Below, piece by piece: positions 1 through 17,316 of a stretch of DNA of 64,000 nucleotides (positions are counted from its first letter, which is position 1; each line of letters begins with the position of its first letter). The notes below the pieces were generated by a model. It had not been told where the DNA came from. It saw only the letters and a program-made list of their open reading frames with translations, and searched no databases. Source of the DNA: Candidatus Taenariivivens baikalensis (lineage in GTDB: Bacteria > Omnitrophota > Omnitrophia > Omnitrophales > Aquincolibacteriaceae); the NCBI GenBank assembly GCA_009691445.1, contig SICL01000007.1, positions 6,916-70,915 of the forward strand, written 5' to 3'. The translations under genes and the position numbers were made by a program.

Positions 1-3000
1 CTGGGCCTGTGAACGAATCATGTCAGGAACTGTCCAGGAGTACGCTCCCGCATTATCCCACGCCGCGGTCAGTGTCTGAATGTCCCGGTGAAACTGATCG
101 CTGGAAAGATCGATTTTGACTTTAGGAATAGATCCCGAAGTCTTCCATTTAATTTCCTGTGTTTCTCCGACCTTCCAGATTTCTCCGCCCGCCGGACTCA
201 GAAGCTGCAGGGTTCCACCGATATGAAAAACCGGGGAAAGGGACAAGACACTTTGATCCTGTGCGTTCATGATGCGAAGCTGCATTTCATTTGTAGCAAG
301 ATCGGGGACGGTCCAATTATAGTTTCCGGAATTAGCCAGCCCGATAATCACCGGCGTCGCATGAGAGAAATTATCATCAGAATATTCCAGAGTTACATAG
401 GGAATCATACCGTGTGTCGACCAGCTGATGGCTTTTTCAGCCCCGGACACCCAGAAATCCTGAGCTACAGGACTGATGAAATTTAAAGCCCCCTGAATTT
501 TCACAGGAGATGCGCTCGTCGCATAAACATGATCATCCTGAGCATCCAGCACACGAACCTTTAGCTGATTGGAAACCACATCTGGAATCTTCCATTCATA
601 ACGGCCCACGTTCGGAGTGACAGCGCTCATCGGTGTGGAAGAAACAAAGTCATCCGTAGAATATTCCAAACGTACCCGTAAAATACCGCCATTGGTATCC
701 CACTCAAGGGTCTCGGTATTCCCAACCGTCCAGATCTGTCCGGCACTAGGGCGTTTAAGAAAAAAACTTCCTGCGATTGTCAGTGCCTGCTCACTGGTCA
801 TCTCCACCGAGAGATTCATAGAATCCGCAACCCGGACCCAGATACTCGAACTGATATCATCCGGAACTTTCCAGAGATAATGTCCGGTATTAGGAAGCAA
901 CTGGCTAATGGGTTGGCGATGACGAATAAACTGATCTTTAGAATATTCGAGGTTCACTTGAGCGATTGTCCCCAGAGTAGCCCAACTGATTTCCTGATGA
1001 CTCCCCGCTTCCCAGCGCTCTCCGCCCTGCGGAGTTTCAAGCCTGAGTCGCCCTACAACTGCAATGGGAAAGGGTGAAAGGGTTTGCACATCCGGATTCT
1101 GGGCATCGGAAATACGAACCGTCAGTTCTTGGGTCACGAGATCAGGAATTTCCCATAGGTACCGACCGGAATTAGCATCGGGAGAATTAATGACGTGGCT
1201 ATCGTGACGAAAAGAATCCGTAGAGTATTCGATTTTAACCTGATGAATCGACCCGCGGGATTCCCAAACAATCTCTTTCTTGCTCCCCACCTGCCATTTT
1301 TCCTTCTTGTCAGGAAAAATCATACGGAGAGTTCCTTCAATTTTAACAGGAGAAGCGCTCTCCGAGAAAACCACGGAATTAGAAACATCCACAACCCTGA
1401 CTCGAATAGACGACGGGAGATTGTCCGGAAGACGCCAAAGATAAATGCCGTGGTTCGGCAAATGGTCCTGGATCACAAGCCACTCGGATCGGCGTTTTTC
1501 ATTGCGAGCCAAAAGCGAAGCAATCTCAGGATAGATTGCTCCGATCGCTTCACTCCCTCGTCCGCCAGAGGACGGATCCGTCCAGCGTTGTGTGGTGGGC
1601 AATGACGAGTCCATATTGGAATATTCCAGCCGAACTTCGGCAATGCTTCCCACGCTTTTCCATTGAAGGGACTGTTCGCTTCCCACTTTCCAGATTTCTT
1701 CTCCAGCCGGCTTCAACAATGCGAGCTTTCCTTGAATCTTGACCGGAGCTTCATGACCCGCAACGACAGAGGCATCTGCCGCATTCACCACACGTACCCA
1801 GATTTGGTCGCTCATCGCATCCGGAACCAGCCACTCATAAAGCCCTTCATTTTTTAAATCACGGATAATAGTCTGGCGATCCTGGCGGAAGCCGTCGCGA
1901 GAAAACTCGAGATGGACACTCGGAATAGTTCCGATAGTTTTCCAATTTAAAGTTGCGTGCCCTTCGACAAAGAAAATCTCTCCGCCTTTGGGATTAAGCA
2001 GTTCAAAATGCCCGCTAATCTTGAAAGGTTTTATAGTCATAGACTGAACGGCCGAATCTTTGGCATCCGAAACCCTCATCCAGAGATGATCTGAAATTGC
2101 ATCGGGGATGATCCAGTCATAATGTCCGCTTTGGCTGGAAATTGTCCCGATTTTTCGGCGATCTGAAACGAACTGATCCGTGGAAAATTCAAGATCCACG
2201 GCAGGAATAGAGCCGACGGTCTTCCACTCCACAGTCTGTTTCTCACCCACCTGGAAGGTCTGGTTTCCCGCAGGTTGAAGTACGCGGAGGCCCCCTCGAA
2301 TCTCAAACGGATCACTGACCGCAAAGACGGACGGATCCTCTGAATTAATGATTTTCACCACCACCTGTTTGGCAATTAAATCCGGAACCTTCCAGGCATA
2401 GGCATTATCATTCGGCCCCGCTTTTTCGATGGCGATTGATTTTTCCTGAAAATTATCCGCGGAAACCTCCAGATCGATCCGTGAAATCGTGCCGAGAGTA
2501 TCCCATTGTAATTTCCTCGTTTCACCGACAAGCCAGTTCTCAGCGCTCTCAGGCATATGAAATTTAAAGCTTCCAATAATCTTGATTTGCTTTTGGGAAA
2601 GAGTCGCCACTGTAGCATCACGGGCATCCGAAACGCGGATCAGAATCTTGCTGTTTGTTTTATCAGGAATCGTCCACAAGAAACTTCCTTGATTCGGGAT
2701 ACCCGTTTGAATCGTATGAAATTCCTGGCTCGTCATGGCTTCTTTCGTTGAAACCATGTATTCCAGTTTGACCTGAGGAACCGTGCCGATTGTTTGCCAT
2801 TCGATCTTTTGTTCACTGCCCACATTCCAAATAGGATTTCCTTCCGGTTCCAAGAAAACAAAATCTCCCATAATGGAAATGGGGTCTTTATGGATTGAGG
2901 CAACCCGCGGATCCGTTGCAGAGGAAACGCGGATTTTCACCTTGTCAGAAATATCGTCGGGCACAGTCCACATTAAATGCCCCGTATTAGCCACTTGATC

Positions 3001-6000
3001 CTGAATCAGGTGAATGTCTTTTTGAAATTGATCCCGAGAATACTCAATCTTTACCTGCGGCAGTGTTCCCACTGAATTCCAAACAATCTCATGTTTGGTA
3101 TCCACAATCCATCGCTCGCGTCCGTGCGGCTCAAAAAGTTGAATGCCGCCCTGAATGGCAAAGGGGGTACCGGAGATGCTGTTGACGAGCGGATCACGCG
3201 CATCGGAAACTCGGATGCGGACGGTATTCGAAATGTCATTAGGAACCATCCACTGAAAAATACCCTGATTATCCACGGAACCCGTCACGAGGTTCCAAAG
3301 GGTGTTCCCTTCCTTATCCTGGGCGGGATCCGAAACGGAATATTCCAAGCGAATTTGCGGGATCGTTCCCACCGTACTCCAGCGCACGGCTTGCCGGGCG
3401 GCCACTTGCGCGGCCACTCCCGCTTTGGGTTCCAAGAGGCTGAGTGCTCCAACAATAGGGATAGGCGTTTGCGATACTCCAAAAATAGTTTCCGTACGAA
3501 TGTCACTGACTCGTAAACGAATGCGGTCGGAAATATCGTCCGGAACATTCCAGAAAAAATTACCTTTATTTTTCAGCGCATCCGCAATGAGAACCGGATG
3601 AGCCACACCGTCTTCTTTGAAATATTCCAAACGCACGACCGGGATAGTTCCCGTAGTATTCCACATCACATTCCTCTTCGATCCAACCACAAAGCGCGGC
3701 TGATCGACCTCTTCCATCAAGGTCAAGGCACCCTGGATATCGAGAGACTGCGGCGTCGCATCCGCGACACTAAAATTAAATTCGTCCATCACGCGCACCT
3801 TCACTCCGGCACCGATATCATCCGGGATCTGCCAGTCCCAAAGTCCGGTATTGAGTACATTAGAAGCAATGATGTGGATATCACTGTGAAAATTGTCGCG
3901 AGAATACTCGATACGGACTTTCGGAACCGTTCCCATGGTTTCCCATTTCAGCTCACGATGGCCCAGCACCGTTAAGATTTCATGCGACTGCAGGGTGGTG
4001 AGCTGAATGCGCCCTTGAATCTTCACAGGATTTGACATCGCCGCAACTTGGGCATCTTTGGCATTTAGGATGCGGAATTTGAGGCTGGTCGAGATCACAT
4101 CGGGCACTTTCCATTCATAGCGATTTTTGTTCGCCAGCCTATTTTCAATCACTTGAATATCTTTTTGAAAATCATCCCGCGAAAACTCGATACGCACTTG
4201 GGGAATCGTTCCGGTGGTTGTCCAAGTGAGCTCTCTGGGTTCTCCCACGGTCCAGGTTTCATTTTGAGTTGGAAGTGTCACGGCCAAAGCACCCGTAATT
4301 TTGAAAGATTTGAGAGAGGTCGTCACCGCCCGGGGATCTTCGGCATCAGAGATTCGAATCGTCACGTGATCAGCAATAACATCGGGAATTTTCCACATCA
4401 ACATGCCGGCATTGGGAGTTTGAGTCACGATGACATTGATATCACGATAAAAATCATCGCGGGAATATTCCACATGGACTTTGGGAATATCTCCCCGTGA
4501 GATCCAGGCAATCGGTTGCGTGGATCCCACGCCCCACACTTCATCGCCTTTGGGGCTGATAAGGCCAAAAGTCCCTATAATGGAAAATGGCTGTTTGGAC
4601 TCAGAAAAAACTTGTGGATCCCGCGCGTCCGAGATACGCACCTTAATGTCATCCGCAATCTGATTCGGCACAAACCATTCAAAACGATTTTGATTCGCCG
4701 CGTCTTCTTTAATCAAAAAGCTTTGCCGTTCAACCCTATTGGGAACTGGTCTTACTTGCTGACCTGTCCCTAATAGGGTTGACGATAAAAATTCAAGCTT
4801 GATTTGGGGAATGGTTCCCGTGGTTTTCCACTCAATGACTTGAGATTGTCCCACACCCCAGACCTCTGCACCGCTGGGCGTTACAAGATCGAGCCGGCCG
4901 CGAATCTGAAAATTGGGTGACACCGCAAACGCCGCGTTATTATCTCCATCACGGATGCGCAGCCGCGCTGTGGATGAAATGCTATCTGGAACCGTCCATT
5001 TGAAGCCCCCTAAATCTTGTACGGGACCTGCAATCGCCGCCCAGTTCTCCCCGCCCACGGAATATTCCAGCCACGTCCGTTGAATTTTCCCAAGGGTATT
5101 CCAGGCAATTTCTTTGATCGATCCAACTTCCGAAATCTCTCCGGCTTTGGGTTCCTTGAATTCAAAACGGGCAGCAATTGTAATCTTTTCTTTTAGCTCG
5201 CTAAGCACTTCAGAATTATTGGAATCTGAAATCCGGATTTTTATCTCTTTGGCCACATCATCGGGAATCTGCCATCCATAACTTCCAGTATTGGGGATGC
5301 CCCGAGCGATTGGCTTCCATCCCTTTTGCTCTGGAAGCCGGTAGCTCAAACTCACTTGCGCAATACTTCCCACGGATTTCCAGAAGATGGTTTGTGAAGT
5401 CCCCACAGGCCAATTGATTTGGCCTTCAGAAATTCTTCCATTCAAACGGCCGCGAATGTGGAACGGCTCGGAAATGAAAACACTGTCCGGTTCCTGCGCA
5501 TCTGAAATCTTGAAACGTATTGTTTCACTAATCTTGTCCGGCACGGTCCAAAAATAATTATCATGATTCGCCCAGTAGCTTTCAATCAATTCATACTTAC
5601 CCAACTCAGGGCCGGTTTGATCCGTTGAAGAAAATTCGAGTTTCACGCTCGGAACATGCCCCAGAGTTTGCCACTTCATCTCGAATTTGTCCGAAACAAA
5701 AAGATTTTGACCCGGCTTCGGAGACGCCAATGAAAATTGCGCCAGAATTTTGAAGGGTTTCTCGCTTTCCCCATAGACTTGGGCATTCTCCAAGTCCGTC
5801 GCACGCACCTTAACTCCGGCTCCGACATCATCCGGAATCTGCCAATCCCACAGCCCTGAATTGGGCGCCTTGGGAGCGATCATTTGGACATCACTGCGAA
5901 AATTGTCGCGGGAATATTCAAGGCGAACTTTCGGAATGGTCCCTGTGGTTTCCCACCGAATCGGACAATGTCCTCTCACCGTCAAAGCCTCCCCCAGCTG

Positions 6001-9000
6001 AGGTGAGCTGAGATGAATGCGGCCTTGAATTTTCAAGGGATTCGTCAGCGCATAAATCTTAGCATCGTTAGCATTGGCAACACGAAATCGAGCACTGCTT
6101 GAGATGACGTCCGGGACTTTCCACTCGTAACGGTTTTTATTGACCCACACATTTTCAATCACCTGAACATCTTTTTGAAAATTATCCCTTGAAAATTCAA
6201 TCCGTATTTGAGGAATGGTTCCCGTCGTCGTCCAGATTAACTCTTTCAGTTCGCCCACCGTCCAAGTCTCATTCGATCCCGGAAGTTTCATGGCGAGCGC
6301 CCCTGCAATCTTGAAAGGCTTGGTTAGCGTCATCTGGGCCCGGGAATCTTCCGCATTCAAAATACGCAGTGTCACTTGATCAGAAATCATATTGGGAATT
6401 TTCCATGTCAGCATGCCCGTGTTCGCGGCTTCTGTCACAATCGCATTAATATCCCGATAAAAATCATCACGGGAATATTCCAAACGAATTTTGGGAACGC
6501 TTCCCTGTGTCATCCAGTTTATCGATTGAGAGGAACCCACAATCCACACTTCGCTGCCTTGAGGACTGATCAGGCGAAACGTCCCAATCACGGAAAAGGG
6601 CTTTTTGGATTCAGAATAAACTTGAGGATCACGAACATCCGTAACACGCACTGAGACATCATTCGCAATCCGGTTTGGAATCACACACTCAAAGCGATTT
6701 TGATTCACCACGCCGTCTTTGATCAAAAAGATTTGACGTTCAACCCTATTGGGGACAGTTCTTACCTGCTGACCTGTCCCCAATAGGGTTGAAGATAAGA
6801 ATTCGAGTTTGATCTTAGGAATAGTTCCTGTGGTCTTCCATTCAATGACCTGGGAATTCCCCACGCCCCAGACCTCACCCCCATTGGGGCTTGTAAGACT
6901 AAGACCTCCGCGGATCTGAAAATTGGACGAAATCGCAAACGCAGCATCATTGTCCCCGTCACGAATCCGCAGCCGAGCCGTGGATGAAATGGCATCCGGG
7001 ACCGTCCATTCAAAACTTCCCGAGTCTGGCACGGGGCCTGCCACCGGGATCCATCCGCCTCCATTCGCCGAGTATTCCAGCCACGCACGCTGAATTTTCC
7101 CGAAAGTATTCCAGGAGATTTCTTGGGTCGCTCCCACTTCCAAAATCTCTCCAGCCTTAGGCTCCTTAAATTCTAAGCGGGCAGCAATCGTAATTTTGTC
7201 TTTGAGTTCATCAAAAACTTCAGAATTATTCGAATCCGCGACACGAAGTTTCACCTTTTGGGCGACATCATCAGGAATTTTCCAGCCGTAGCTTCCTGTA
7301 TTAGGAATACCGCGAATGATAACCTTCCAGTCATTTTGTTCTGGAAGCTGGTAGCTTAAATCAACCTGTTCGATACTTCCCACCGATTTCCAGAAAATCG
7401 TTTGCGCGGTACCCACGGGCCAATTGATTTGACCTTCTGAAATTTTTCCCGTTAATCGGCCGCGAATTCGGAAGGGTTCGGAGAGAGTAAAGCTGTCTGG
7501 CTCCCGAGCATCGGAGATTTTAAGTCGAATGGCTTCATTGATCGTGTCCGGAACCGTCCAGAAATAATTACCCCGGTTTGCCCAATCACTTTCGATCAAT
7601 TCGAATTGATTCGTCTCACGGCTATTTTCGTCCGCTGCAGAAAATTCAAGTTTGACGCTCGGAACATTCCCCAAGGTCTTCCACTTGAGTTCGAATTTAT
7701 CGGCCACAAAGAGATTCTGGCTGGGTTTAGGCGATAGGGTGGGAAATTGCGCTAAGATTTTGAACGGCTTTTCGCTGATCTGGACAGCCTGCGAATCCTG
7801 GGTATCGAGGACACGCATTTTCACCTGGGAGGAAACATCCGCGGGAATTTCCCAAGAAAACTCACCCTTGTTTTGAATCGGGCGAGTGACATCCTTCCAT
7901 TCAACCGGCCCTTTATCCGTAAAAATTCCATACTGCAGAATGACGCGAGGACTTGTTCCGAAAGTTTTCCATTGAATCGTTTCACGCTGCCCTACTTTCC
8001 AAGGCTCCCCGCCATTCGGATGAATGATGCCGTAACCCGGAACAACTTTTAAAAAACTTGGGGAAATGCCCAGAGACGCGGAATGGGCGGCGTCCATGAC
8101 ACGTATCCTGATTTTTTCGTTGACTTGATCCGGGATGGTCCACGACACCTTTCCCGTATTCGGAAGATCACGCGCAATCACGGACGTGGTCATAAAATCG
8201 TTGGTGGAATATTCGACATTCACCTTATCCAACGTTCCCCGCCAATCCCACTCTACGGCATGCTCACTCCCCACTTTCCACATATCCCCGGCCTTGGGTT
8301 TAAGCACCTGAATCTTTGGAAGAATGCTGAAGGCATGATCGGACCCATCTCGGACTTTATCATTTTTCTGACTGATGACCCGGATCACCGCAGACTGCGT
8401 AATATCATCCCCCGGAGTCCAGACAAAGGGAGATTTATCCGAAACGTCCTGGGCAATCGGGTGAACATCTTTAACAAAGCCATCTTTGGAGTACTCCATT
8501 TTAAGGGCCCCCACAGATCCAATACTGACCCATCGAATTTCCGCAGGCTGACCGACAAAGAAATTCTCTTCTCCGTTCGGAGACGTCACAATAATGTCCG
8601 GGCGGATTTCAAACGGTGCGTTTGAAGCATCCCAAGCGTCTAAATCACTATCATTGATCACCCGAACCTTGGCGGCTTTGCTAACATCATTCGGGACCAT
8701 CCATTCAAAGGAACCGCCGTTGGCAATGCGGTCCACAATATTTTTCCATTCCAGACCCGTCGCGTACTGGAGCCGGATCTTCTCGGTCCCGCCGATCGTC
8801 TTCCAGGAAATTTTCTGTTTGCTTCCCACTTTCCAGACTTCGTTACCGTCCGGAGAGATCATCACAAATCCGGGCATGATCTTGAAAGGTTTATCCGAGA
8901 GATCAAAGGCTTTGGGATTTGATGCGTCAGAAATACGAACCGTAACCGCTTTCCCAAGAGCGGGAGGGAGCGTCCAAGGATAATTTCCTGTATTGGTGTA

Positions 9001-12000: not shown

Positions 12001-15000
12001 TGTCTTCCAACGAATGCCCTGATTGCTGCCCACTTGAAAACGAGCATGGGCTTCGGGATAAACCACTTGAAGCCGCCCATGGATCGTGAATGCATCGTTA
12101 GAAATATCCATCGTTTTGAAATCACGAACATCGGAGATACGGACCTTCGCAGTTTTTGAGATATGATCCGGAATCGTCCAGTGGTAAGTTCCTTCATTCT
12201 TCATTGAATCCACAATCGGATAAATCTGATTTTTGAACTCGTCCGTAGAGTAATCCAGTTTGACTTCGAACATACTTCCCAAAGCCTTCCAGATAATGTC
12301 CTGTTTCGAACCCACCTCCCAGCGTTCCCTGTAATTGGGAGTCGAAACCTCAAACGCGCCCATAATCCGAAAAGTAATATCCGAGGTATCATAAATGCGC
12401 GGATCCAGAGCATCCATCACCCGGATTTTAATCATCGGATCAATCGTATCCGGCACCGTCCACTTATAGGAACCCGCATTTTTAAAATCTTTAACGATGG
12501 AATGAAAATCTTTTTTGAAATCATCCCGGGAATACTCGAGATTAACTGCGGCAACTTCTCCGGCAGAATTCCATTGAAGTGTTTGCGGACTTCCGACCAG
12601 CCATCCTTCACCACCGTTTGGACTCGTGACCGTAAGTTTATTGGGAAGATATTCAAGCTCCAGCGATTCCAGTTCGACCGGCTCAACTCCTGAAGGGGAA
12701 TGGAGAAAGGCTTTGAAATAAAAACTCCCGATGCCGACTTCTGAGGGAAACAGATAAATGCGCTGGGCCACTTGCGCGGCCGTATTGGATTCCGCAATGG
12801 AAGCGGCCACAACCCAGTGACGTCCATTGTGATAATACCAATTGGAACCGTCCCGAGAGATCTGATACGTGATCATCCCTTTATGGTGGGTTCCAAGCCG
12901 CTCGCGAAAGTCAGAAATCGCCGCAAACGAAACGCTCTTATTGTTAATGATTGCCGGCTTGTCGACGGAATAGTCATTGCCTTGCACGGAAACGGACTTG
13001 ATGGTAGGACCGACGGCAGCATCCTCTGTTTTTAGAAGAGCGAGATACTGAAAATAACGGCCCGGAGCAACTTCCAACTTTTGCGGAGAAATTCCGCGGT
13101 ACGCATTTTCCGGATTAGTTTTAAAAAACAGGTTCGCGACTTCATGGTCCGAAAGCGCTTCGGCGGCAATCAGCGCTTCATCGATTCCCCCGTGAAAAAA
13201 ACCTGCGGCTCCACTGCCGTAACGTCCCAGGTAAAGCGCTCCCTTATCATAAAAAATCGGCGAGTGGAAGGAAGCTTTCTTCACAAGGCTTCCATTAATA
13301 TAGAGTCGAATTTCCTTTCCATTCCAGGTTGCCGCCACATAATTCCATCGCCCCACCCCTATTTGGCCATCCTGGTCACTGCTCTCCAAATGATACCCGC
13401 CTTCGTGCCCAAGACGCACTCCAAGACGGTTGCCGGAAAGCAGTTCCAGAGAAAAGGATGAAAAAATCGGAGCGCCTCCTGCGTAATGTTTATCAATAAT
13501 TCGGGAGCTTTCTTTTTCCACTTCCTCGGGACGAATCCAGGCGGAAAGGGTGAAGGCATCGTGAAGATGAAGGCTCTCGGAATCCGCGACTTCGATAAAA
13601 TCACTGGCACCATTCAAATATATCCCGCGGGAAATAACGCCTTCCGAAGATGCGATTCCATGACCGTAGGCAACGCCGTGGTTGGCATACCGCGAATCAT
13701 CGGCCACTTCATTCGAACTTCCCTGCAGATTTTTTTCGTTAAAATGCCACAAGGCTACCGTACTTTCAGAGGGTCTGATTTCTGAAGCTGCGGGTCCTTG
13801 AGGACCGCGCCATTCACTGTTTGTAAAGCTCTCGGATTCTGAGGTGCGAACCAAGAATTTCGTATCCAGTTTCGCGCTGAGGTACTCATCCGTAATCGTC
13901 TTCTTATCTAAGCCGTAATTAAAAAATGCAAATTCATCCACGGCACCTTCAAAAGTATCGGAAGATTTTAAATTGCCGATGATAAGCGGTTCCGCGGCCG
14001 TGGCGCGGACAAACGGCGAAGATCCGGACAGGTCTCCGTCCAGATAAAGAAAAAGACTATGTCCATCGGAAGTCAAAGCCGCATGATGCCACCGACTGTC
14101 AAGAATCGCGACGTCGCTGACAATCTTCCGGGCTCCAGTGCTGACGACGTGAAGCCGTCCGTCCGGCGCGGAGCGGTAAAGAGAAGGGTTCTCATCTCCC
14201 ACACTGAAGATGCGGTCCACCCCTTGAGGTTCTGAACTTTTGAACTGAAACCAGAGGGAAATCGTAAAGGTTGAAAGGGACGGAAAGGTTTTCTGGGAAA
14301 TGATCTTGTCATACCCCTTTTTTGAAAACCAGCGTGCCTGTGAGAAAACGCCAGGCACCGCGTAAGTTCCCATTGCATTCGCAGGAGTTTCATTCATTTC
14401 ATCCTGAAAAAGAGAGCCGCTGGGTTCATCTAAATGATAAAGATGAAGCATTCCCTTCTCTTCTTTCTGGATTTGTTTTCCATATGACTGCAGGGGCTGC
14501 CAGGAAAGCGTCTGCCACGGAGACTGGCTACCGGCATCTTTGACTTTAGAAACATAAATCCCGCTCGGCGGAAAGAGATTCGCATCCGCCGCAATTTCAT
14601 ATTTATTTTTTACGCGTCGGTAAATGGCGACATCATCCAGCACGCCTTGAAACCAGGAACTTCTCGCGCTGTCGGTGCCAATCACCAGATCGGATTTTTC
14701 GCTTATCCGTAATTCACCGCTGTAAGACGCCGAAGAATCCAGAACACCATCGACATAAATAGAAAGCCTTCCCTGACCCCACGTCACCGCAACATGATGC
14801 CATTCATTGGGCATCAGGGCATGCTGTCCCGTAAAATCAGGCGGAGAAAGCAAGGAGCTGGCTGCGTGCATTTTCCCAAGGGGGCCCACCAGAGAAACCG
14901 AGTAATCCGCCTGACCGCCAAAATTGGATACGAGAGGCATCACTTCCCCCTTACCTGGAAGTTTTTCCGGTTTGACCCACATCTCCAGAGTCAGCTGTCC

Positions 15001-16209
15001 CTCAGGACTGAAATGATGGGAAGGAGTAATCTCAAGAAATTGTTTACTGCCGGCGAAGCGCATCCCCGATGATTTTTTTCCCTCAACGCCATACTCGGGA
15101 TGTTCATGGGCAATTCCGCTATGGCCATATCCTGAACTATCGGAAAGAATACCGGCGCGTTCATCCAGATGCCAGGATCCGACCAATGCTTGCGGATTCC
15201 CAAAATGATTCATCGCCTGTGTTTCGCTCAAAGCCTTGGAATAAAACGCAACCTCATCAAGCACTCCGTCAAAAAAATTCTTCATTTTATTATCAATCAG
15301 AGCGCCCAGATAGAGAGGGATATTGGTTTGAAATACGGGACCCGTAAAAGTCACCGGCTGTGTGTCCAAAGCACCGTTCAAATAGACACGCAGCTCATTT
15401 CCCGTATAAACTCCCACCGCGTGGTACCAGTGTCCCGGACTCAGCACCGTCTCTCCCGTTACGCGAGTCGAGATTGAACCATCACGGGAGACCTGAAAAT
15501 CCAGTTTTCCTTCCGAAGAGATTTGGAGGGCAAAAGATTTCTGAGATCCGATCGTCTGCCAACGCGAGACGAGAGCCTGAACCTTGCCTTTCACCGGAGA
15601 AACAGGACGAATCCAGGACTCCACAGAAAAAGGCCCCTTGAAATTAAACGTGTCATAATCAGGAATAAAAACATGGCTTTTGACCCCATCAAAAAGACGG
15701 GCATAGTTGAATCCTGTTTGGCCGCTGACCATCTCAGTGTCATTGGTCTTAGCAACATTTTTCCCCACAGCATCCAGAATGTTGGTTCCGCTGGGTTCAT
15801 CCAGATGCCAAAGCGCCATAAGACCTGCGGTATCTTCGTCCACGGGAGCCGGAAGAAAATTTTCGGGGCTAGCTTCAGAGCTCTGCGGAATCAACTCAAG
15901 GGCTTCGTTTGTCGCCCAAGTATTTTCATCATAAGTTCCGAGATCGAAGGGAATACGGCCTTTATCCTTATAAAGTATTTTCTTTTTTAAGGAAGCCTGT
16001 TTTTCAGAAACCTGAATCTTCTGGGGATCAAAACGGTAATCTTCCTGATTCTCAAAACCCCATTTCCGGATCTGTGCATAGAGCGTGGAAGAAAAGGCCA
16101 AGGAAAGAAAAAAGATGACGGTCCATACGCCCAATAAATAAAACCCTCGGATACCGCGGGTTTTATGAGGTTCTTTGGGTTTCAAAAAAAACATTTTTTT
16201 GATGCTCAT
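1..16209 (-). CDS. Giant secreted/surface protein, N-terminal 5,403 codons (C-terminus beyond window edge): signal anchor + 4 LamG-like modules + >=44 tandem Kre9/KNH-like Ig-fold repeats
   Basis: The minus-strand frame with start ATG at rc(16207-16209), preceded by in-frame TGA at rc(16213-16215), is open for every codon down to position 1. The supplied ORF track omits it; it lists only scattered <=131-aa ORFs in other frames across 1-16200. My own translation gives N-terminus MSIKKMFFLKPKEPHKTRGIRGFYLLGVWTVIFFLSLAFSSTLYAQ (hydrophobic signal/anchor). The first ~1,100 aa carry four LamG/ConA-like signatures (ALWHLDEPSG, GSWHLDERAG, LYHLDEPSG, LWHFNEKN). The remainder is ~96-aa units of pattern SPxGGExWxVGxxxxIxWxTxGxIxxVxLEYSxDxFxxDxxxIxxxxxNxGxYxWxVPDxIxxxxKxRxSD repeated in tandem. 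Confidence 0.85.
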   Translation of the reverse strand, partial: MSIKKMFFLKPKEPHKTRGIRGFYLLGVWTVIFFLSLAFSSTLYAQIRKWGFENQEDYRFDPQKIQVSEKQASLKKKILYKDKGRIPFDLGTYDENTWATNEALELIPQSSEASPENFLPAPVDEDTAGLMALWHLDEPSGTNILDAVGKNVAKTNDTEMVSGQTGFNYARLFDGVKSHVFIPDYDTFNFKGPFSVESWIRPVSPVKGKVQALVSRWQTIGSQKSFALQISSEGKLDFQVSRDGSISTRVTGETVLSPGHWYHAVGVYTGNELRVYLNGALDTQPVTFTGPVFQTNIPLYLGALIDNKMKNFFDGVLDEVAFYSKALSETQAMNHFGNPQALVGSWHLDERAGILSDSSGYGHSGIAHEHPEYGVEGKKSSGMRFAGSKQFLEITPSHHFSPEGQLTLEMWVKPEKLPGKGEVMPLVSNFGGQADYSVSLVGPLGKMHAASSLLSPPDFTGQHALMPNEWHHVAVTWGQGRLSIYVDGVLDSSASYSGELRISEKSDLVIGTDSARSSWFQGVLDDVAIYRRVKNKYEIAADANLFPPSGIYVSKVKDAGSQSPWQTLSWQPLQSYGKQIQKEEKGMLHLYHLDEPSGSLFQDEMNETPANAMGTYAVPGVFSQARWFSKKGYDKIISQKTFPSLSTFTISLWFQFKSSEPQGVDRIFSVGDENPSLYRSAPDGRLHVVSTGARKIVSDVAILDSRWHHAALTSDGHSLFLYLDGDLSGSSPFVRATAAEPLIIGNLKSSDTFEGAVDEFAFFNYGLDKKTITDEYLSAKLDTKFLVRTSESESFTNSEWRGPQGPAASEIRPSESTVALWHFNEKNLQGSSNEVADDSRYANHGVAYGHGIASSEGVISRGIYLNGASDFIEVADSESLHLHDAFTLSAWIRPEEVEKESSRIIDKHYAGGAPIFSSFSLELLSGNRLGVRLGHEGGYHLESSDQDGQIGVGRWNYVAATWNGKEIRLYINGSLVKKASFHSPIFYDKGALYLGRYGSGAAGFFHGGIDEALIAAEALSDHEVANLFFKTNPENAYRGISPQKLEVAPGRYFQYLALLKTEDAAVGPTIKSVSVQGNDYSVDKPAIINNKSVSFAAISDFRERLGTHHKGMITYQISRDGSNWYYHNGRHWVVAASIAESNTAAQVAQRIYLFPSEVGIGSFYFKAFLHSPSGVEPVELESLELEYLPNKLTVTSPNGGEGWLVGSPQTLQWNSAGEVAAVNLEYSRDDFKKDFHSIVKDFKNAGSYKWTVPDTIDPMIKIRVMDALDPRIYDTSDITFRIMGAFEVSTPNYRERWEVGSKQDIIWKALGSMFEVKLDYSTDEFKNQIYPIVDSMKNEGTYHWTIPDHISKTAKVRISDVRDFKTMDISNDAFTIHGRLQVVYPEAHARFQVGSNQGIRWKTLGSIPAIKLQYAVKNEEGEQEWKKIENVYPNHGDYVWPVPDQIDQAVTIRVSDPNDDKVFSDSSKFIIMAAMEILNPKGGEYWTVGSRRKIAWKTTGTVSSVNLEYTSIDRAFQKDLQDGKLALDDKAFKWNLIEKGLTNIGSYAWVVPDSLTENAVIRVTDAGDPQAGALCRNPFRIIPGFVLQTPNGSEAWAIASEHDIEWETKGSMQEVRLEYSKDAFVKDAHTLIDRASNIGRFSWKLPDDASPKVWVRVSDPDTPQASDISDVPFRLYGTFEFSSPLGGEKYEVGTLASIQWETKGNIPQVKLEYSHDNFNKDARVIAPSILNHGQYTWTVPDDIGSGYYFRISDPRDPQAAVISDGVFSVVGKFYLLTPVGGENLVVGTVQNITWKGAGSVAFIRIDYSEDDFTKSFVTLAEATANNGIFKWEIPNKIGQGFKLRIWDPSHPESMYVMAHSSRIIGGFMLDSPNGGESLYVGEPFDVSWKTSGNVDRVKLDFSDDNFTKRIWEISDTVENLEKYLWKIPDMPAGLYKLRISDPRDSYSFDISNSDFRIRSRVTLMSPKGGEGWAVGEKHAIQWKTSGMISKVKIEYSTDDFKSSSTIAEAVPNTGVYEWTVPNYVAQSIKFRISDVSDPGARVVSTSTMKTQAILSLTTPRGGEVWHVGQTYPILWKSSGEVKGVKIEYSRDGFISEAKTIIPSTPNQGIYNWTVPDEISRHTKIRVMDLTDSQTQVMSKTPFQIAGSFQMMGPNGQEIWHALEKREISWVSVGTMPEVDLSFCAVQNDAKEECSNNHDDNRFVIDKGVVNSGRYVWDIPRLVGEKFKVKVCDSQNPEICDESDHPFALNSPFEIVYPRGAEIWPVGSDQEIRWHTYGNVARVLIQYATPASVDSITNGKKITWKTLAEGLDNQEYFLFKIPDDISKNVIFKLADWDDEELYSATSHPVMFAGTFTLLIPNGGEKWAAGATQKIVWDTLGSVPNARLEFSTDNFDHDVNVIESSYTNTGNYPWTLPPALGKAVTVRISDASNPKAFDLSDKPFKIMPGFVMISPDGNEVWKVGSKQKISWKTIGGTEKIRLQYATGLEWKNIVDRIANGGSFEWMVPNDVSKAAKVRVINDSDLDAWDASNAPFEIRPDIIVTSPNGEENFFVGQPAEIRWVSIGSVGALKMEYSKDGFVKDVHPIAQDVSDKSPFVWTPGDDITQSAVIRVISQKNDKVRDGSDHAFSILPKIQVLKPKAGDMWKVGSEHAVEWDWRGTLDKVNVEYSTNDFMTTSVIARDLPNTGKVSWTIPDQVNEKIRIRVMDAAHSASLGISPSFLKVVPGYGIIHPNGGEPWKVGQRETIQWKTFGTSPRVILQYGIFTDKGPVEWKDVTRPIQNKGEFSWEIPADVSSQVKMRVLDTQDSQAVQISEKPFKILAQFPTLSPKPSQNLFVADKFELKWKTLGNVPSVKLEFSAADENSRETNQFELIESDWANRGNYFWTVPDTINEAIRLKISDAREPDSFTLSEPFRIRGRLTGKISEGQINWPVGTAQTIFWKSVGSIEQVDLSYQLPEQNDWKVIIRGIPNTGSYGWKIPDDVAQKVKLRVADSNNSEVFDELKDKITIAARLEFKEPKAGEILEVGATQEISWNTFGKIQRAWLEYSANGGGWIPVAGPVPDSGSFEWTVPDAISSTARLRIRDGDNDAAFAISSNFQIRGGLSLTSPNGGEVWGVGNSQVIEWKTTGTIPKIKLEFLSSTLLGTGQQVRTVPNRVERQIFLIKDGVVNQNRFECVIPNRIANDVSVRVTDVRDPQVYSESKKPFSVIGTFRLISPQGSEVWIVGSSQSINWMTQGSVPKIRLEYSRDDFYRDINAIVTEAANTGMLTWKIPNMISDQVTLRILNAEDSRAQMTLTKPFKIAGALAMKLPGSNETWTVGELKELIWTTTGTIPQIRIEFSRDNFQKDVQVIENVWVNKNRYEWKVPDVISSSARFRVANANDAKIYALTNPLKIQGRIHLSSPQLGEALTVRGHCPIRWETTGTIPKVRLEYSRDNFRSDVQMIAPKAPNSGLWDWQIPDDVGAGVKVRATDLENAQVYGESEKPFKILAQFSLASPKPGQNLFVSDKFEMKWQTLGHVPSVKLEFSSTDQTGPELGKYELIESYWANHDNYFWTVPDKISETIRFKISDAQEPDSVFISEPFHIRGRLNGRISEGQINWPVGTSQTIFWKSVGSIAQVSLSYRLPEQKGWKPIARGIPNTGSYGWQIPDDVAKEIKIRISDSNNSEVLSELKEKITIAARFEFKEPKAGEISEVGSIKEIAWNTLGKIQRTWLEYSVGGENWAAIAGPVQDLGGFKWTVPDSISSTARLRIRDGDNNAAFAVSPNFQIRGRLDLVTPSGAEVWGVGQSQVIEWKTTGTIPQIKLEFLSSTLLGTGQQVRPVPNRVERQSFLIKEDAANQNRFEWFVPNQIADDIKVRISDARDPQVFSESKQPFSIIGTFGLISPKGDEVWGVGSTQPIAWISRGDIPKVHVEYSRDDFYRDINVIVTQTPNAGMLMWKIPDVIADHVTIRISDAEDPRAVTTSLKSFKITGALAVTLPTQNETWTVGEPRELTWTTTGTIPQVRIEFSRDDFQKDIQVIENRLANKNRYEWKVPDVISTSLKFRILNAKDAQVAAMSNPVKIQGRIQLTTLQSHEILTVLGHRELKWETMGTVPKVRIEYSRDNFHSDIHIIASNVLNTGLWDWQIPDDIGAGVKVRVMDEFNFSVADATPQSLDIQGALTLMEEVDQPRFVVGSKRNVMWNTTGTIPVVRLEYFKEDGVAHPVLIADALKNKGNFFWNVPDDISDRIRLRVSDIRTETIFGVSQTPIPIVGALSLLEPKAGVAAQVAARQAVRWSTVGTIPQIRLEYSVSDPAQDKEGNTLWNLVTGSVDNQGIFQWMVPNDISNTVRIRVSDARDPLVNSISGTPFAIQGGIQLFEPHGRERWIVDTKHEIVWNSVGTLPQVKIEYSRDQFQKDIHLIQDQVANTGHLMWTVPDDISDKVKIRVSSATDPRVASIHKDPISIMGDFVFLEPEGNPIWNVGSEQKIEWQTIGTVPQVKLEYMVSTKEAMTSQEFHTIQTGIPNQGSFLWTIPDKTNSKILIRVSDARDATVATLSQKQIKIIGSFKFHMPESAENWLVGETRKLQWDTLGTISRIDLEVSADNFQEKSIAIEKAGPNDNAYAWKVPDLIAKQVVVKIINSEDPSVFAVSDPFEIRGGLRVLQPAGNQTFQVGEKQTVEWKTVGSIPAVDLEFSTDQFVSDRRKIGTISSQSGHYDWIIPDAISDHLWMRVSDAKDSAVQSMTIKPFKISGHFELLNPKGGEIFFVEGHATLNWKTIGTIPSVHLEFSRDGFRQDRQTIIRDLKNEGLYEWLVPDAMSDQIWVRVVNAADASVVAGHEAPVKIQGKLALLKPAGEEIWKVGSEQSLQWKSVGSIAEVRLEYSNMDSSLPTTQRWTDPSSGGRGSEAIGAIYPEIASLLARNEKRRSEWLVIQDHLPNHGIYLWRLPDNLPSSIRVRVVDVSNSVVFSESASPVKIEGTLRMIFPDKKEKWQVGSKKEIVWESRGSIHQVKIEYSTDSFRHDSHVINSPDANSGRYLWEIPDLVTQELTVRISDAQNPDVQTLSPFPIAVVGRLRLETPQGGERWEAGSHQEISWATLGTIAQVNLEYSKDQFIRHRQPISQLLPNTGHYLWKVPDDISSSIWVRVADSMNLSVEMTSEQALTIAGSFFLKRPSAGQIWTVGNTETLEWDTNGGILRVRLEYSTDDFVSSTPMSAVTPNVGRYEWKIPDVVSNQLKVRVLDAQDDHVYATSASPVKIQGALNFISPVAQDFWVSGAEKAISWSTHGMIPYVTLEYSDDNFSHATPVIIGLANSGNYNWTVPDLATNEMQLRIMNAQDQSVLSLSPVFHIGGTLQLLSPAGGEIWKVGETQEIKWKTSGSIPKVKIDLSSDQFHRDIQTLTAAWDNAGAYSWTVPDMIRSQAQ
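4732..4780. repeat. Second, slightly degenerate copy of the same in-CDS palindrome (aaccctattgggaactg-N-ctgtccctaatagggtt) in duplication copy 2
   Basis: Read directly from the sequence; it sits at the homologous position 2,010 bp from the first copy. Confidence 0.7.
6742..6790. repeat. Perfect 17-bp inverted repeat with 15-nt spacer (aaccctattggggacag-N15-ctgtccccaatagggtt) embedded in-frame in the giant CDS
   Basis: Read directly from the sequence. It encodes LLGTGQQVRTVPNRVE and lengthens the LEYS-to-NxGxYxW segment of that Ig repeat by ~13 aa relative to neighbouring repeats. Confidence 0.75.
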
Positions 16210-16223: not shown

Positions 16224-17270
16224 TTATCGGACTTTTTGTTCTAATTCAAGCGCCAAAACATATCCTTCAACTTTCTTGGCATCCGGAGCCTTTGGATTCA
16301 CGGCGATATATCTCTGATAATGATAAAGCGATTTTTCGCGGTCCTTGAGAAAATCGTCGTAGAGAATGCCAAGATTGTAATGGGTGTCTGGATCATTCGG
16401 CATCAGCTCCAGTGCTTTTTCATACTCAGTGATCGCTTCTTTATACCGTTTATTTTGAAGAAAAACCGTGGCAAGATTGTAATGCATTTGAGCATTTTCT
16501 CTCATCATTTTTTGAGAAATACGACTCGCCCTGGCAAGACCCGGAACCGCATCTTTGAATTTGGCTTTCAAAATCTCAATCTGTTCGCGGTATTCCTTAT
16601 TTTCTTTGATCAAATTCTTCTGACGTATTTCCAGGGTCTGGATGTAAGAGGTTTTCTGCCGCAATTCTTTATTTTCCGCCACAATCTTGTGGAGCTCTTC
16701 TCTGTCCATTTCAAGCGGCGTCATCTGCCGTTTCATTTCCTCAAATTGTTTTTCATACTCGAATACCTTTTGTGCCATTTTTTTATTTTCTTCCTGCAGG
16801 CGGTTCCGATCCTCCAAGACCTGATTGATTTTTTCAGGCGTGTATTCCGTCATGATTTTAGCCAGTGAATCACTCCGGTCTTTTTCTTCCTTCAGCTTCC
16901 GTTCCAGATTTGTTTTCTCTTCCGCGGAAAGTTCCCGATCCTTAGAGCGAGCAGCTTTGATTTTCGCCAACTCTCCGCTCAAGATAGCATTCTCTTTTTT
17001 GAAAGATTCCAGTTCTACCCCTGCGCCACTCGTCAAATTCTTAAGTTGCTCAATTTTAGCCAGCAAATCCGCTTTCTCTTTTTGAAAAAAACGTGCTTGC
17101 TTCAAAATGTTATTGCGATCGGATTTTAGGTCCTCCAATTCTCGGGAAAGTTTTGCATTTTTCTGAGTCAGCTCCTTCACGGTCACCGCAGGATCGGCCT
17201 CAGTTCCAGCAAAACCAAGCGGCATCCATGCGGCCAGAAAGATCATCCATGCCATTCCAATTTTTTTCAT
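16224..17270 (-). CDS. Secreted coiled-coil protein with C-terminal TPR repeats (MshN-like by context)
   Basis: ORF 16224..17291. The likely start is internal MKKIGMAWMIFLAAWMPLGFAG (signal peptide) with GAGG 5 nt upstream. A long heptad-like K/E/L-rich stretch (KELTQKNAKLSRELEDLKSD...) is followed by TPR-like AQMHYNLATVFLQNKRYKEAITEYEKALELMPNDPDTHYNLGILY. The stop lies 14 bp upstream of the giant gene start. Confidence 0.6.
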   Translation of the reverse strand: MKKIGMAWMIFLAAWMPLGFAGTEADPAVTVKELTQKNAKLSRELEDLKSDRNNILKQARFFQKEKADLLAKIEQLKNLTSGAGVELESFKKENAILSGELAKIKAARSKDRELSAEEKTNLERKLKEEKDRSDSLAKIMTEYTPEKINQVLEDRNRLQEENKKMAQKVFEYEKQFEEMKRQMTPLEMDREELHKIVAENKELRQKTSYIQTLEIRQKNLIKENKEYREQIEILKAKFKDAVPGLARASRISQKMMRENAQMHYNLATVFLQNKRYKEAITEYEKALELMPNDPDTHYNLGILYDDFLKDREKSLYHYQRYIAVNPKAPDAKKVEGYVLALELEQKVR

Positions 17271-17316
17271 TTTTTCCTCAGCCTGTCCCACGTAATAACG
17301 AAAGTTAGTTAATTTT

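Follow-up and report, generated by a model that had tools for sequence, protein, structure and literature searches.

The first 16,209 nucleotides of the analysed DNA (a 64,000-nt stretch of contig SICL01000007.1 of Candidatus Taenariivivens baikalensis, hereafter the window) are the 5′ five-sixths of a single Omnitrophota gene, and its standing as a real gene under selection is well supported. We read its product, with a probability of about 0.6, as a fibrillar adhesin or matrix protein that has a lectin-like head and is secreted, perhaps via a secretin encoded next to it. The features of the gene and of its surroundings are listed in Table 1.

Table 1. Features of the giant gene and of the gene block upstream of it, in window coordinates (residue numbers refer to the giant protein except for the TPR protein).
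Feature	Position	Strand	Description
Giant gene, visible part	1..16209	-	5,403 codons, 603 kDa; 3′ end past window position 1
Probable signal peptide, aa 1–45	16075..16209	-	Basic n-region, hydrophobic core at aa ~22–44, then LYA/Q
LamG module 1, aa ~126–335	15205..15834	-	Laminin_G_3, best stretch aa 174–331; LWHLDE at aa 133; NCBIfam TafC match by the LamG part of that profile
LamG module 2, aa ~340–540	14590..15192	-	Laminin_G_3 and Laminin_G_2; SWHLDE at aa 345; 28% identity to module 1
LamG module 3, aa ~585–775	13885..14457	-	Laminin_G_3 stretch; LYHLDE at aa 590; 27% identity to module 1
LamG module 4, aa ~815–1030	13120..13767	-	Laminin_G_3 and Toxin_R_bind_N at aa 833–980; LWHFNE at aa 820
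Conserved unannotated domain, aa 1031–1191	12637..13119	-	Between LamG head and stalk
Stalk, aa 1192–5403	1..12636	-	44 tandem Kre9_KNH-type Ig-like units, the last cut by the window edge
Seven-unit block duplication	3727..7746	-	Units 18–24 (5737–7746) and units 25–31 (3727–5736)
Periplasmic coiled-coil and TPR protein	16224..17291	-	TPR_11, TPR_1 and TPR_2 at aa 252–340 of this protein; weak Tgl and PilW similarity
Secretin	17317..18930	-	Pfam Secretin 156.5 bits, Secretin_N twice; conserved in all loci
GspC-like protein, 239 aa	18902..19621	-	NCBIfam GspC_delta, E 2.6e-10, below cut-off
GspA/ExeA-like AAA_22 ATPase	19576..20529	-	AAA_22; TIGR03015 pepcterm_ATPase 178 bits (cut-off 324.5)
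HD-GYP-type (HD_5) protein	20588..22441	-	HD_5 83 bits, HD 49 bits
Second GspA/ExeA-like AAA_22 ATPase, with which the block begins	22410..23216	-	AAA_22; TIGR03015 218.7 bits (cut-off 324.5)
Best sigma-70-like match	23228..23255	-	TTGACA-16-GATAAT, 11/12 matches, in the gap upstream of the block

Reverse-complement translation yielded one minus-strand frame without a single stop from the ATG at 16207–16209 to window position 1, as the preliminary description of this DNA had stated. The frame was still open at the window edge, so the C-terminus lies beyond position 1, which had been claimed as well. The remaining five frames of the same stretch carried 93–351 stops. An in-frame stop was located 12 codons upstream of the ATG with no other start codon in between; an independent gene call placed the start at the alternative ATG at 16192–16194. 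The gene is indeed entirely missing from the ORF track, which lists only spurious ORFs of 100–266 aa within 1–16209. The cause is mechanical, because ORFs running off the source go unlisted. No tRNA or Rfam family was found in the window, and the stretch is therefore without a non-coding explanation.

The longest exact repeat within the gene was 22 nt, no 31-mer recurred, and no DNA tandem array was detected in it by TRF. The Logan assembly of run SRR8561390 contained a 13.8-kb contig identical to window 8089–21869 (0 mismatches). Since the repeat units are only ~32% identical to each other, no 31-mer recurs and this independent contig matches exactly, the repeat array is not an assembly artefact, and the doubt about the repeat count raised beforehand can be dismissed. 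We consider the gene real and selected because the frame is open, 31-mers are not repeated, the second assembly is identical, dN/dS between two duplicated blocks of the stalk is 0.13, and three intact full-length orthologues exist. In view of all this, mis-assembly of the repeats or a gene no longer functional is practically out of consideration, although the short-read Logan contig stops inside the array at window 8089 and L003, a contig of a related MAG, is frameshifted and ends oddly; TRF, the 22-nt limit and the Logan identity effectively refute the artefact. Contig L003 was also considered as a short version of the gene and rejected: a frameshift lies near 9000, and the contig terminates in unrelated sequence, 92 bp past a mid-repeat stop.

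The exact 50-mer of window 1–50 had no match in the genome contigs or the metagenome contigs, and the sole contig with an exact copy of the neighbouring secretin was the 13.8-kb Logan contig, which lies inside the window. Since no contig extends past window position 1, the 3′ end was inferred from orthologues. Three full-length orthologues (P0174, P0175 and P0176; 6,203, 6,941 and 5,594 aa), collinear with the window gene, were found in related metagenomic contigs of three other assemblies, each closed by a stop codon and followed by further genes. They came from an exhaustive representative search and had been missed by a word-index search with the head. A word-index search with the last 443 visible residues returned short repeat proteins of 24–38% identity and no continuation of the gene. 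The closest, and the only, named relative was a MAG assigned to ‘Candidatus Omnitrophota bacterium’ with a syntenic locus of ten genes, in line with the earlier hint at this phylum. Orthologous proteins were 40–59% identical to those of the window locus, and the orthologue stalks comprised 41–55 units. Unit 44 of the window corresponds to unit 41 of 48, 48 of 55 and 34 of 41 in the three orthologues, and in all three its equivalent is followed by seven more units and a conserved tail of 470–510 aa. By analogy, because seven units and a tail follow in each case, the complete window protein probably has ~6,550 aa (~730 kDa), with ~51 units and a tail of ~470–510 aa.

The tail of the orthologues is built of three beta-sandwiches with a disordered linker and, at its end, four helices; its outermost C-terminal residues are hydrophilic and helical. 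Neither PEP-CTERM, LPXTG, a T9SS CTD, an autotransporter barrel, RTX nor a membrane helix was found in the three tails, and they contained no hydrophobic segment and had no Pfam match at E ≤ 1. In fold searches the helices at the end had no match, and the sandwiches matched only generic folds of this type (macroglobulin, Fn3, transthyretin-like); a word-index search with an orthologue tail gave no match. Since the full-length orthologues do not have the sorting signals listed above, the earlier designation ‘surface protein’ should be read conditionally, and the protein may be released rather than surface-bound.

An HMM derived from the repeats resolved 44 back-to-back stalk units, 43 whole and one cut by the edge. 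This upholds the previous count of at least 44 tandem repeats but not their length of ~96 aa: the usual unit has 94 aa, consisting of a 91-aa domain and a 3-aa linker. The Kre9/KNH-like pattern seen in the preliminary description was recovered by Pfam, where PF10342 (Kre9_KNH; cut-off 24.6 bits) scored 160.9, 88.5, 81.4 and 31.3 bits on the four pieces of the protein; only some of the individual units exceed the cut-off alone. By sequence, no PDB relative was found. A two-unit stretch was modelled by AF2 with a pLDDT of 96.7, showing 7–9 strands per unit and an Ig/Fn3-like fold, and the top Foldseek matches of this model in PDB were tandem Fn3/Ig modules. As shown by modelling, the predicted units are Ig-like beta-sandwiches joined by three-residue linkers. 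On each point that could be tested, the earlier reading of the domains proved correct: Laminin_G_3 and Kre9_KNH by HMM, and the Ig/Fn3 fold by AF2 and Foldseek. The two blocks of the seven-unit duplication have 54–78% unit-by-unit identity at offset 7 and 74% DNA identity, and the second copy is missing from the closest orthologue, P0174. An Ig-like domain is usually ~4 nm long, from which we estimate a length of ~200 nm for a stalk of ~51 units.

The N-terminal segment was the only stretch of the 5,403 aa with a Kyte-Doolittle value above 1.6. In all six orthologues aligned, the leader is hydrophobic and unconserved and ends with A or S at −1, and the mature N-terminus that follows is conserved as [QKED]I.[QK]W.F. 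The preliminary description was right about a hydrophobic leader, but the six-orthologue alignment suggests a signal peptide that is cleaved off, not a signal anchor. It is probably a Sec-type signal peptide cleaved after LYA. Such a leader, with A or S at −1, would also represent the N-terminal Sec/Tat signal that is expected of type II substrates.

Four LamG-like modules with LWHLDE-type motifs had been noticed before, and Pfam found Laminin_G_3 in four separate stretches (336 bits; cut-off 27.6); the motifs start at aa 133, 345, 590 and 820. Pairwise identity among the modules was 22–28%, and the match in module 1 covered profile positions 1–149 of 151. The unannotated domain of ~160 aa behind them had no Pfam match at E ≤ 0.01 and no PDB match by sequence; it is strongly conserved in the orthologues, with further matches inside the very long proteins P0208 and P0225. 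Judging from these families, the LamG modules (concanavalin-A-like jelly-rolls) and the unannotated domain likely form a ligand-binding head, and its ligand would most plausibly be a carbohydrate. The best NCBIfam match for the LamG head was TafC (NF052521), which at 139.9 bits falls below the family cut-off of 410 and covers only profile positions 150–361, the LamG part. An MshQ-like LamG protein of an MSHA pilus system was also considered as the identity of the head, but NCBIfam gave no MshQ match, and none of the papers searched linked MshQ with LamG; the idea enters only the MSHA-like alternative below.

Upstream of the giant gene lies a block of six genes on the same strand. The TPR gene, which occupies this place in all orthologous loci, ends 14 nt before the giant-gene ATG. 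The secretin scored 250, 240 and 200 bits against NCBIfam PilQ, GspD and MshL, respectively, each below the curated cut-off. The orthologue of the GspC-like protein in contig L006 had a faint match to PF11356 (T2SSC), and the independent gene call placed the start of the ATPase gene next to the GspC-like gene at 20445. The HD-GYP-type protein is, by its domains, a probable c-di-GMP phosphodiesterase, and its gene was kept in the loci with enough upstream sequence. Promoter-like sites were not more numerous in total than expected by chance, and the best of them is a weak candidate for the operon promoter. The order AAA_22, HD-GYP, AAA_22, GspC-like, secretin, TPR and giant gene was the same in the window and in contigs L002, L004, L005 and L006, although the proteins are only 40–59% identical; the shorter contig L003 showed the secretin–TPR–giant gene core. 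Directly downstream of the giant gene, L004, L005 and L006 carry a conserved gene for an AsmA/DUF748-like small protein. No GspE/PilB ATPase, GspF platform or (pseudo)pilin gene was found in the window or within ±10 kb of the orthologues. A complete type II system near the giant gene is not supported; the genes seen nearby would encode outer-membrane and accessory parts only.

The window contains LpxD, SurA-like, Lgt and LspA genes besides the secretin gene, which marks the organism as diderm. It also contains c-di-GMP enzymes and an EPS cluster with Wza-, Wzc-, Wzy_C- and EpsL-like genes, a glycosyltransferase, WbqC and PIG-L. The EPS genes nearest to the block (GT4, WbqC and PIG-L) occur as an insertion in the window and L002 and are absent in L005 and L006; EPS linkage is therefore less conserved than secretin linkage.

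Export of the protein is indicated by its single N-terminal hydrophobic segment, the conserved A or S at −1, the annotation of most relatives of its repeats as secreted and the diderm host, while the conserved gene order at 40–59% identity and the gap of 14 nt link it with the secretin. We propose that Sec would export the giant protein to the periplasm, where its signal peptide would be cleaved. Its folded domains might then pass through the co-encoded secretin head first, by a type II-like route, after which its tail, or some associated factor, would keep it at the cell. Either its production or its export may be coupled to c-di-GMP as well as to the neighbouring exopolysaccharide genes. As a fibrillar adhesin or matrix-binding fibre, the protein would allow a very small cell to make contact with, and attach to, its own polysaccharide, a partner cell or a surface. 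The adhesin function is suggested by domain families.

It is possible, though unlikely, that the protein is instead an unanchored matrix scaffold that is released and cross-links the cell's own exopolysaccharide with its LamG head, much as polysaccharide-binding biofilm matrix proteins do in other bacteria. The full-length orthologues have no anchor or sorting signal, the EPS export and biosynthesis cluster and c-di-GMP enzymes share the window, and the GspA-like ATPases best match TIGR03015, a PEP-CTERM/EPS-locus subfamily; however, the nearest EPS genes are not in L005 and L006, and the conserved, structured tail suggests a specific partner. A clearly unlikely elaboration of the secreted-adhesin reading is that the block and the C-terminal module form a dedicated, undescribed system of export and retention for giant Sec-dependent adhesins. 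The chain would thread the secretin head first as its Ig-like domains fold, and the C-terminal module, the last to leave Sec, would remain behind, either in the periplasm or in the vestibule of the secretin, to stop and anchor the chain, with c-di-GMP, via the HD-GYP protein, deciding between display and release. Such a C-terminal stopper would mirror LapA, whose retention module lies at the N-terminus and is held in a TolC-like pore.

Quite improbable, in our opinion, is that the secretin block represents an MSHA-like type IV pilus or another envelope module, that its place beside the giant gene has nothing to do with export, and that the giant protein exits otherwise or stays in the periplasm or envelope. 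The secretin is relatively nearer to the cut-offs of PilQ and MshL than to that of GspD, and the combination of AAA_22, secretin and TPR proteins is reminiscent of MshM, MshL and MshN. GspE, GspF and pseudopilin genes are not nearby, and the AsmA-like protein would be a candidate partner in the three loci that encode it. On the other hand, pilin and pilus ATPase genes are equally missing from the surroundings, the secretin lies next to a GspC-like protein, and the giant gene keeps its place in the gene order across all loci examined at the given divergence, with the short gap to the TPR gene. Very improbable is a tethered polysaccharide-degrading machine for prey cell walls with the concanavalin-A-like modules as glucanase-type catalytic domains, despite the cell-wall digestion proposed by West-Roberts et al. 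for Omnitrophota giants (bioRxiv 10.1101/2023.11.21.568195), since Pfam found no glycoside hydrolase family in the 5,403 aa or in the precomputed Pfam lists of the orthologues, and the head has its best named match in TafC, by the LamG part of this protein, for which a role as adhesin at a fimbrial tip has been proposed.

The secreted adhesin-like protein proposed here can be compared with several known systems. RTX adhesins such as LapA, SiiE and MpIBP are T1SS giants whose stalk consists of tens of Ig-like domains, with modules for ligand binding at one of the ends, and the surface display of LapA is controlled by c-di-GMP. They have no N-terminal Sec signal and carry C-terminal RTX and a T1SS signal, with genes for ABC, MFP and TolC-like proteins. 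In contrast, the giant gene studied here has a Sec signal and a secretin block, RTX or a T1SS signal did not occur in the tails of the orthologues, and no ABC or MFP genes were found in the window or in the orthologue neighbourhoods. The fungal Ser-Thr-rich GPI-anchored proteins of the Kre9/Knh1 and SGP1 type resemble the repeat unit, which passes the PF10342 threshold, but have a single N-terminal copy and a GPI anchor vs. ~51 copies here. Bacterial relatives of the repeat with 4–7 units and ~400–780 aa are common in Ignavibacteria, Bacteroidota, Aminicenantes and others. They are mostly annotated as secreted, and many end in Por_Secre_tail (T9SS); they differ from the window protein in copy number, and its orthologues have no T9SS tail.

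Fibrillar adhesins in the sense of Monzon and Bateman (PMC9210967; bioRxiv 10.1101/2020.12.07.414375) share with our protein the great length, a putative adhesive region at one end, a stalk rod of tandem Ig-like domains and a signal peptide. The window protein has at least 5,403 aa and 44 units with 3-aa linkers, and the four LamG modules at the end distal to the tail would be the adhesive region. In contrast to fibrillar adhesins, the three full-length orthologues have no known anchor domain or sortase motif, the host is diderm, and the linkage of the gene is with a secretin block, not with a sortase, T1SS or T5SS. Kre9_KNH and LamG are not named in the main text of PMC9210967. TafC is a LamG-bearing minor subunit proposed to cap the Tat-fimbriae of haloarchaea (PMC11821415) and thus also places LamG at the distal end of a thin filament of Ig-like units. 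However, only its LamG part matches, far under the cut-off, and in these archaeal fimbriae small Tat-exported subunits polymerise non-covalently, vs. a single, presumably Sec-exported polypeptide in a diderm bacterium.

As a rule, type II/IV-like secretion loci precede the giant genes of Omnitrophota (bioRxiv 10.1101/2023.11.21.568195; 10.64898/2026.06.07.730766). West-Roberts et al. (2023) highlighted giants of >30,000 aa with many TM regions, mostly with a divergent SecA DEAD domain, and reported gspD, gspE and gspF; Nielsen and Lui (2026) distinguished a ‘tandem-repeat scaffold’ class and an SP-only topology class. The window protein resembles these giants in its phylum, in tandem repeats, including PF13385, that are divergent and not recent DNA repeats, and in the adjoining, putatively type II/IV-like secretion genes and c-di-GMP-related genes. 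It differs in size: the preliminary description put it within the range of Omnitrophota giants, yet at ~6.5 kaa it is well below the ≥10 kaa and >30 kaa of these papers, where up to 147 kaa is reached. Furthermore, the window protein and its orthologues have a signal peptide without further TM helices, SecA-DEAD, C39, S8 and dockerin domains are absent, and the block has gspD- and gspC-like genes and no gspE or gspF. Arrays of Kre9_KNH are not mentioned in either paper.

The product of the giant gene is a well-supported but fairly ordinary bacterial giant adhesin-like protein, small by Omnitrophota standards. Huge LamG/Ig-repeat proteins are common and secretion-linked giants are already known in Omnitrophota; the gene alone overturns nothing known. 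For annotation, a seemingly gene-free stretch of 16 kb is one gene, and ORF lists that drop end-truncated frames hide just those genes which make Omnitrophota unusual. The finding adds to the very long proteins of the phylum a compact, cleanly modular family whose tail has no known sorting signal. With 5.6–6.9 kaa, its members are small enough for domain-wise expression and modelling, and the family could become a tractable case of how ultra-small, host-dependent bacteria export and hold long fibres.

The reverse complement of window positions 1-16209 contained no stop in 5,403 codons from the ATG at 16207-16209; across the same interval, the remaining five frames contained 93 to 351 stops. 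An in-frame stop is located 12 codons 5' of this ATG with no start codon in between, and a second ATG at 16192-16194 was the start in an independent gene call on the Logan contig. The ORF list, which by design omits ORFs running off the source, showed only spurious ORFs of 100-266 aa in this interval. The preliminary description was therefore correct in proposing a giant minus-strand gene missed by the ORF track. No tRNA or Rfam family was detected anywhere in the window.

Its concern that the repeat count could be an artefact of assembly was ruled out. The repeat units share on average 32% pairwise identity, and TRF detected no DNA tandem repeat. The longest exact repeat within the gene was 22 nt and no 31-mer occurred twice; therefore, collapse or expansion of the array by a k-mer assembler can be excluded. 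In addition, the Logan assembly of run SRR8561390 was identical to window 8089-21869 with zero mismatches. Units 25-31 duplicate the seven-unit block of units 18-24; protein identity between the copies is 54-78% and DNA identity is 74%. The dN/dS value between them was 0.13, indicating that both copies were kept under purifying selection. Thus, the giant gene is real and under selection. The short-read Logan contig breaks at window 8089, about 340 bp upstream (in the gene direction) of this duplicated block at 3727-7746.

The visible part of the protein had a mass of 603 kDa, a pI of 5.6, and seven cysteines. Only one segment of it, at aa ~22-44, exceeded 1.6 on the Kyte-Doolittle scale. Alignment of six orthologous N-termini revealed a leader that was basic, then hydrophobic, and otherwise unconserved; it ended with A or S in all six (LYA, VWA, LYA, LFA, GYS, and LHA) and was directly followed by a conserved [QKED]-I-x-[QK]-W-x-F motif. 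Such a pattern is expected where a Sec signal peptide is cleaved off; the leader is therefore probably such a peptide, and the previously proposed signal anchor is probably wrong. In the window protein, the predicted mature N-terminus, at aa 46, reads QIRKWGF.

Pfam Laminin_G_3 matched four stretches of the head (336 bits), and LWHLDE-type motifs were found at aa 133, 345, 590, and 820, in agreement with the four LamG-like modules predicted previously; the modules were 22-28% identical among themselves. Between the fourth module and the stalk, a ~160-aa segment (aa 1031-1191, window 12637-13119) was strongly conserved in orthologues and had no Pfam or PDB match. It was also present inside other very long proteins (P0208 and P0225) and contained an Asp-box-like SRDGSNW motif. 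The stalk, beginning at aa 1192, occupied the rest of the visible protein. With an HMM derived from its repeats, 44 back-to-back units of 75-105 bits each were recognized, the last visible one being cut at residue 70. Acidic residues close to the C-terminal end of the unit were conserved in every unit. The earlier count of at least 44 repeats was thus retained, and the unit length of ~96 aa was corrected to usually 94 aa, with 3-residue linkers and insertions in a few units. Pfam Kre9_KNH (PF10342), the family suggested for the repeats, scored 160.9, 88.5, 81.4, and 31.3 bits on four pieces (cut-off 24.6). Overall, the protein consists of a four-LamG head and a long array of Ig-like domains on short linkers, as the structural interpretation had it.

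In the word-index search, the best match of the head was a partial protein with 52% identity across 99% of the query; it came from a 'Candidatus Omnitrophica bacterium' MAG, on a contig with ten genes syntenic with the window. When each GTDB species was represented by one genome, true orthologues, with 49-52% identity over the whole head, were found in only four species, one of them 'Candidatus Omnitrophota bacterium'; all other matches shared LamG domains only. An exhaustive search of representatives yielded three full-length orthologues of 6,203, 6,941, and 5,594 aa with 48, 55, and 41 units, respectively, each encoded on a separate contig, complete to the stop codon and followed by further genes. 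The table lists, for the window units, the best-matching units of the closest orthologue, P0174; it follows that the unit number changes by gain and loss of blocks. After the equivalent of unit 44, exactly seven more units and then a conserved tail of 468-510 aa were present in all three orthologues. By extrapolation, the window gene would have ~51 units and ~6,550-6,600 codons, ending roughly 3.5 kb beyond position 1. In a shorter orthologous locus (L003, contig JAKFZD010005447.1), a frameshift was observed inside the gene (~9000), and the contig ended in unrelated sequence shortly after a mid-repeat stop (10808-10900). Misassembly, or chimerism at the end of the contig, is the probable cause.

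The tail had no Pfam match even at E<=1, no word-index relatives, and no PDB relative by sequence. An AF2 model based on three sequences, with a mean pLDDT of 74.6 and values of 75-92 for the domains, resolved it into the five parts listed in the table. No hydrophobic helix, C-terminal LPXTG, PEP motif, or barrel was detected in the orthologue tails; therefore, in the orthologues, none of the sorting signals considered in the preliminary description is present. If the giant protein is held at the cell, this would be via something not yet described. Proteases of the MrtS/myxosortase type process C-terminal sorting signals. The window encodes a CPBP/Rce1-like intramembrane protease, 33 kb away from the giant gene, that weakly matched MrtS and the myxosortase family in NCBIfam (42.9 bits, cut-off 130); the orthologue tails contained no matching signal.

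Coordinates of the genes, repeat units, and tail parts discussed in the text.
Feature	Sequence	Position	Strand	Remarks
GspA/ExeA-like AAA_22 ATPase	Window	22410-23216	(-)	TIGR03015 218.7 bits, below cut-off
HD-GYP-type protein	Window	20588-22441	(-)	HD_5 83 bits, HD 49 bits
Second AAA_22 ATPase	Window	19576-20529	(-)	TIGR03015 178 bits, below cut-off
239-aa GspC-like protein	Window	18902-19621	(-)	GspC_delta E 2.6e-10, below cut-off
Secretin	Window	17317-18930	(-)	Pfam Secretin 156.5 bits; PilQ, GspD, MshL all below cut-off
Coiled-coil and TPR protein	Window	16224-17291	(-)	Stop 14 nt before ATG of giant gene
AsmA/DUF748-like gene	L005	30849-31541
AsmA/DUF748-like gene	L006	26801-27523
AsmA/DUF748-like gene	L004	27211-27888
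Paralogous giant gene	L004	29274 to locus end
Paralogous giant gene	L006	29871-34427
Six consecutive ORFs	Window	28210-32888
Exopolysaccharide cluster	Window	38060-48051	(-)
GGDEF sensor	Window	44446-45813	(+)
CPBP/Rce1-like protease	Window	49403-50296	(-)
Menaquinone-like cluster	Window	50810-55104	(-)
910-aa FG-GAP protein	Window	58050-60782	(-)
Response regulator, HD-GYP-type domain	Window	61002-62360	(-)
Window units 1-24	P0174	Units 1-24		Collinear
Window units 25-31	P0174	Units 18-24		Best match; duplicated block of window absent from P0174
Window units 32-37	P0174	Units 25-30		Collinear
No counterpart in window	P0174	Units 31-34		Four units missing from window
Window units 38-44	P0174	Units 35-41		Collinear
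Tail part 1	Orthologue tail	Residues 1-77		Beta-sandwich (AF2)
Tail part 2	Orthologue tail	Residues 83-180		Beta-sandwich (AF2)
Tail part 3	Orthologue tail	Residues 187-245		Disordered linker, poorly conserved (AF2)
Tail part 4	Orthologue tail	Residues 248-337		Beta-sandwich (AF2)
Tail part 5	Orthologue tail	Residues 354-464		Helical end, four long helices (AF2)

Directly upstream of the giant gene and on the same strand, a secretin-containing block of six genes was found (first six rows of the table, in transcription order). Its order was identical in four orthologous loci (L002, L004, L005, and L006) despite the proteins being only 40-59% identical, and L003 contained the secretin-TPR-giant core. 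Co-location of the giant gene with a secretin module is therefore conserved. Genes for a GspE or PilB ATPase, a GspF platform, or pilins were absent from the window and from the 10 kb around the orthologues. Among the sigma-70-like matches in the region, the best one (23255-23228) was located in the gap 5' of the first AAA_22 gene; the total number of matches was not above chance. Directly downstream of the giant gene, L004, L005, and L006 encoded a membrane-anchored AsmA/DUF748-like protein of ~225-240 aa. A few kb further downstream, L004 and L006 had a second, paralogous giant gene with a signal peptide, LamG, and Kre9-like units; its product had the same 'AQIQSWDF'-type mature N-terminus and shared 25% identity with the window protein across ~2,000 aa. 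Such a gene may also be located beyond the left edge of the window.

Diderm markers in the window were LpxD, a SurA-like protein, Lgt, and LspA. An exopolysaccharide export and assembly cluster encoded a Wzc-like tyrosine kinase, a Wza-like Poly_export/SLBB protein, an EpsL-like outer-membrane protein, a PrsT-like TPR protein, and a Wzy_C-type ligase. Several of its genes had sub-threshold matches to PEP-CTERM/exosortase-locus families; an exosortase was not found in the window. Three c-di-GMP-related genes within the 64 kb (the HD-GYP protein of the block, a GGDEF sensor, and a response regulator with an HD-GYP-type domain) suggest c-di-GMP control of the adhesin and exopolysaccharide region. 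Six consecutive ORFs (516, 326, 234, 137, 133, and 150 aa) had no Pfam match at 1e-5; orthologues of the 516-aa protein, with a weak PLDc_2 match, belong to the conserved block that precedes the giant gene. A 910-aa protein with FG-GAP repeats and no NCBIfam match is probably another surface or extracellular protein. Another cluster resembled the futalosine-route menaquinone pathway, with VitK2_biosynth (MqnA-like), radical SAM CofH/MqnC-like, UbiE-type methyltransferase, UbiX-like flavoprotein, and UbiA prenyltransferase genes.

Of the >41,000 UniProtKB proteins longer than 5,000 aa, those from bacteria are especially numerous in a few phyla, Candidatus Omnitrophica being one, and those from archaea commonly have Laminin_G_3 at the N-terminus (PMC11573180). 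The giants reported from Omnitrophota reach 30-147 kaa and often adjoin type II/IV-like secretion genes (bioRxiv 10.1101/2023.11.21.568195; 10.64898/2026.06.07.730766); a tandem-repeat class, in which PF13385 occurs up to 36 times, and a topology class with SP only have been distinguished among them (10.64898/2026.06.07.730766). The window protein resembles them in phylum and repeat logic and, in part, in its secretion-gene neighbourhood but is several-fold below the size thresholds of those studies and has neither internal TM helices nor their signature domains. Compared with fibrillar adhesins (PMC9210967), it fits in length, stalk, and putative adhesive end and, judged by the orthologue tails, lacks a known anchor. 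Assignment to RTX/T1SS adhesins was rejected. In the literature searched, Kre9_KNH was discussed for fungal proteins only; in the databases, several bacterial phyla nevertheless have frequent relatives with 4-7 such units, and many of these carry T9SS tails.

Judging from its family and from TafC, an analogous LamG-tipped subunit in the Tat-fimbriae of haloarchaea (PMC11821415), the head could bind a ligand, probably carbohydrate. The stalk would form an extended fibre of ~200 nm, according to our estimate of ~4 nm per Ig-like domain. The protein may cross the outer membrane via the co-encoded secretin and act as an adhesin or matrix fibre. We assign this overall reading a probability of about 0.6; most of the uncertainty concerns the export route and whether the protein is retained or released. 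Two features are mildly unusual: the secretin-containing block, for its tight conservation, and the tail, which is conserved but unannotated. In combination, they would be compatible with a dedicated system for export and retention, which we consider rather improbable and which, if true, would be of real interest.
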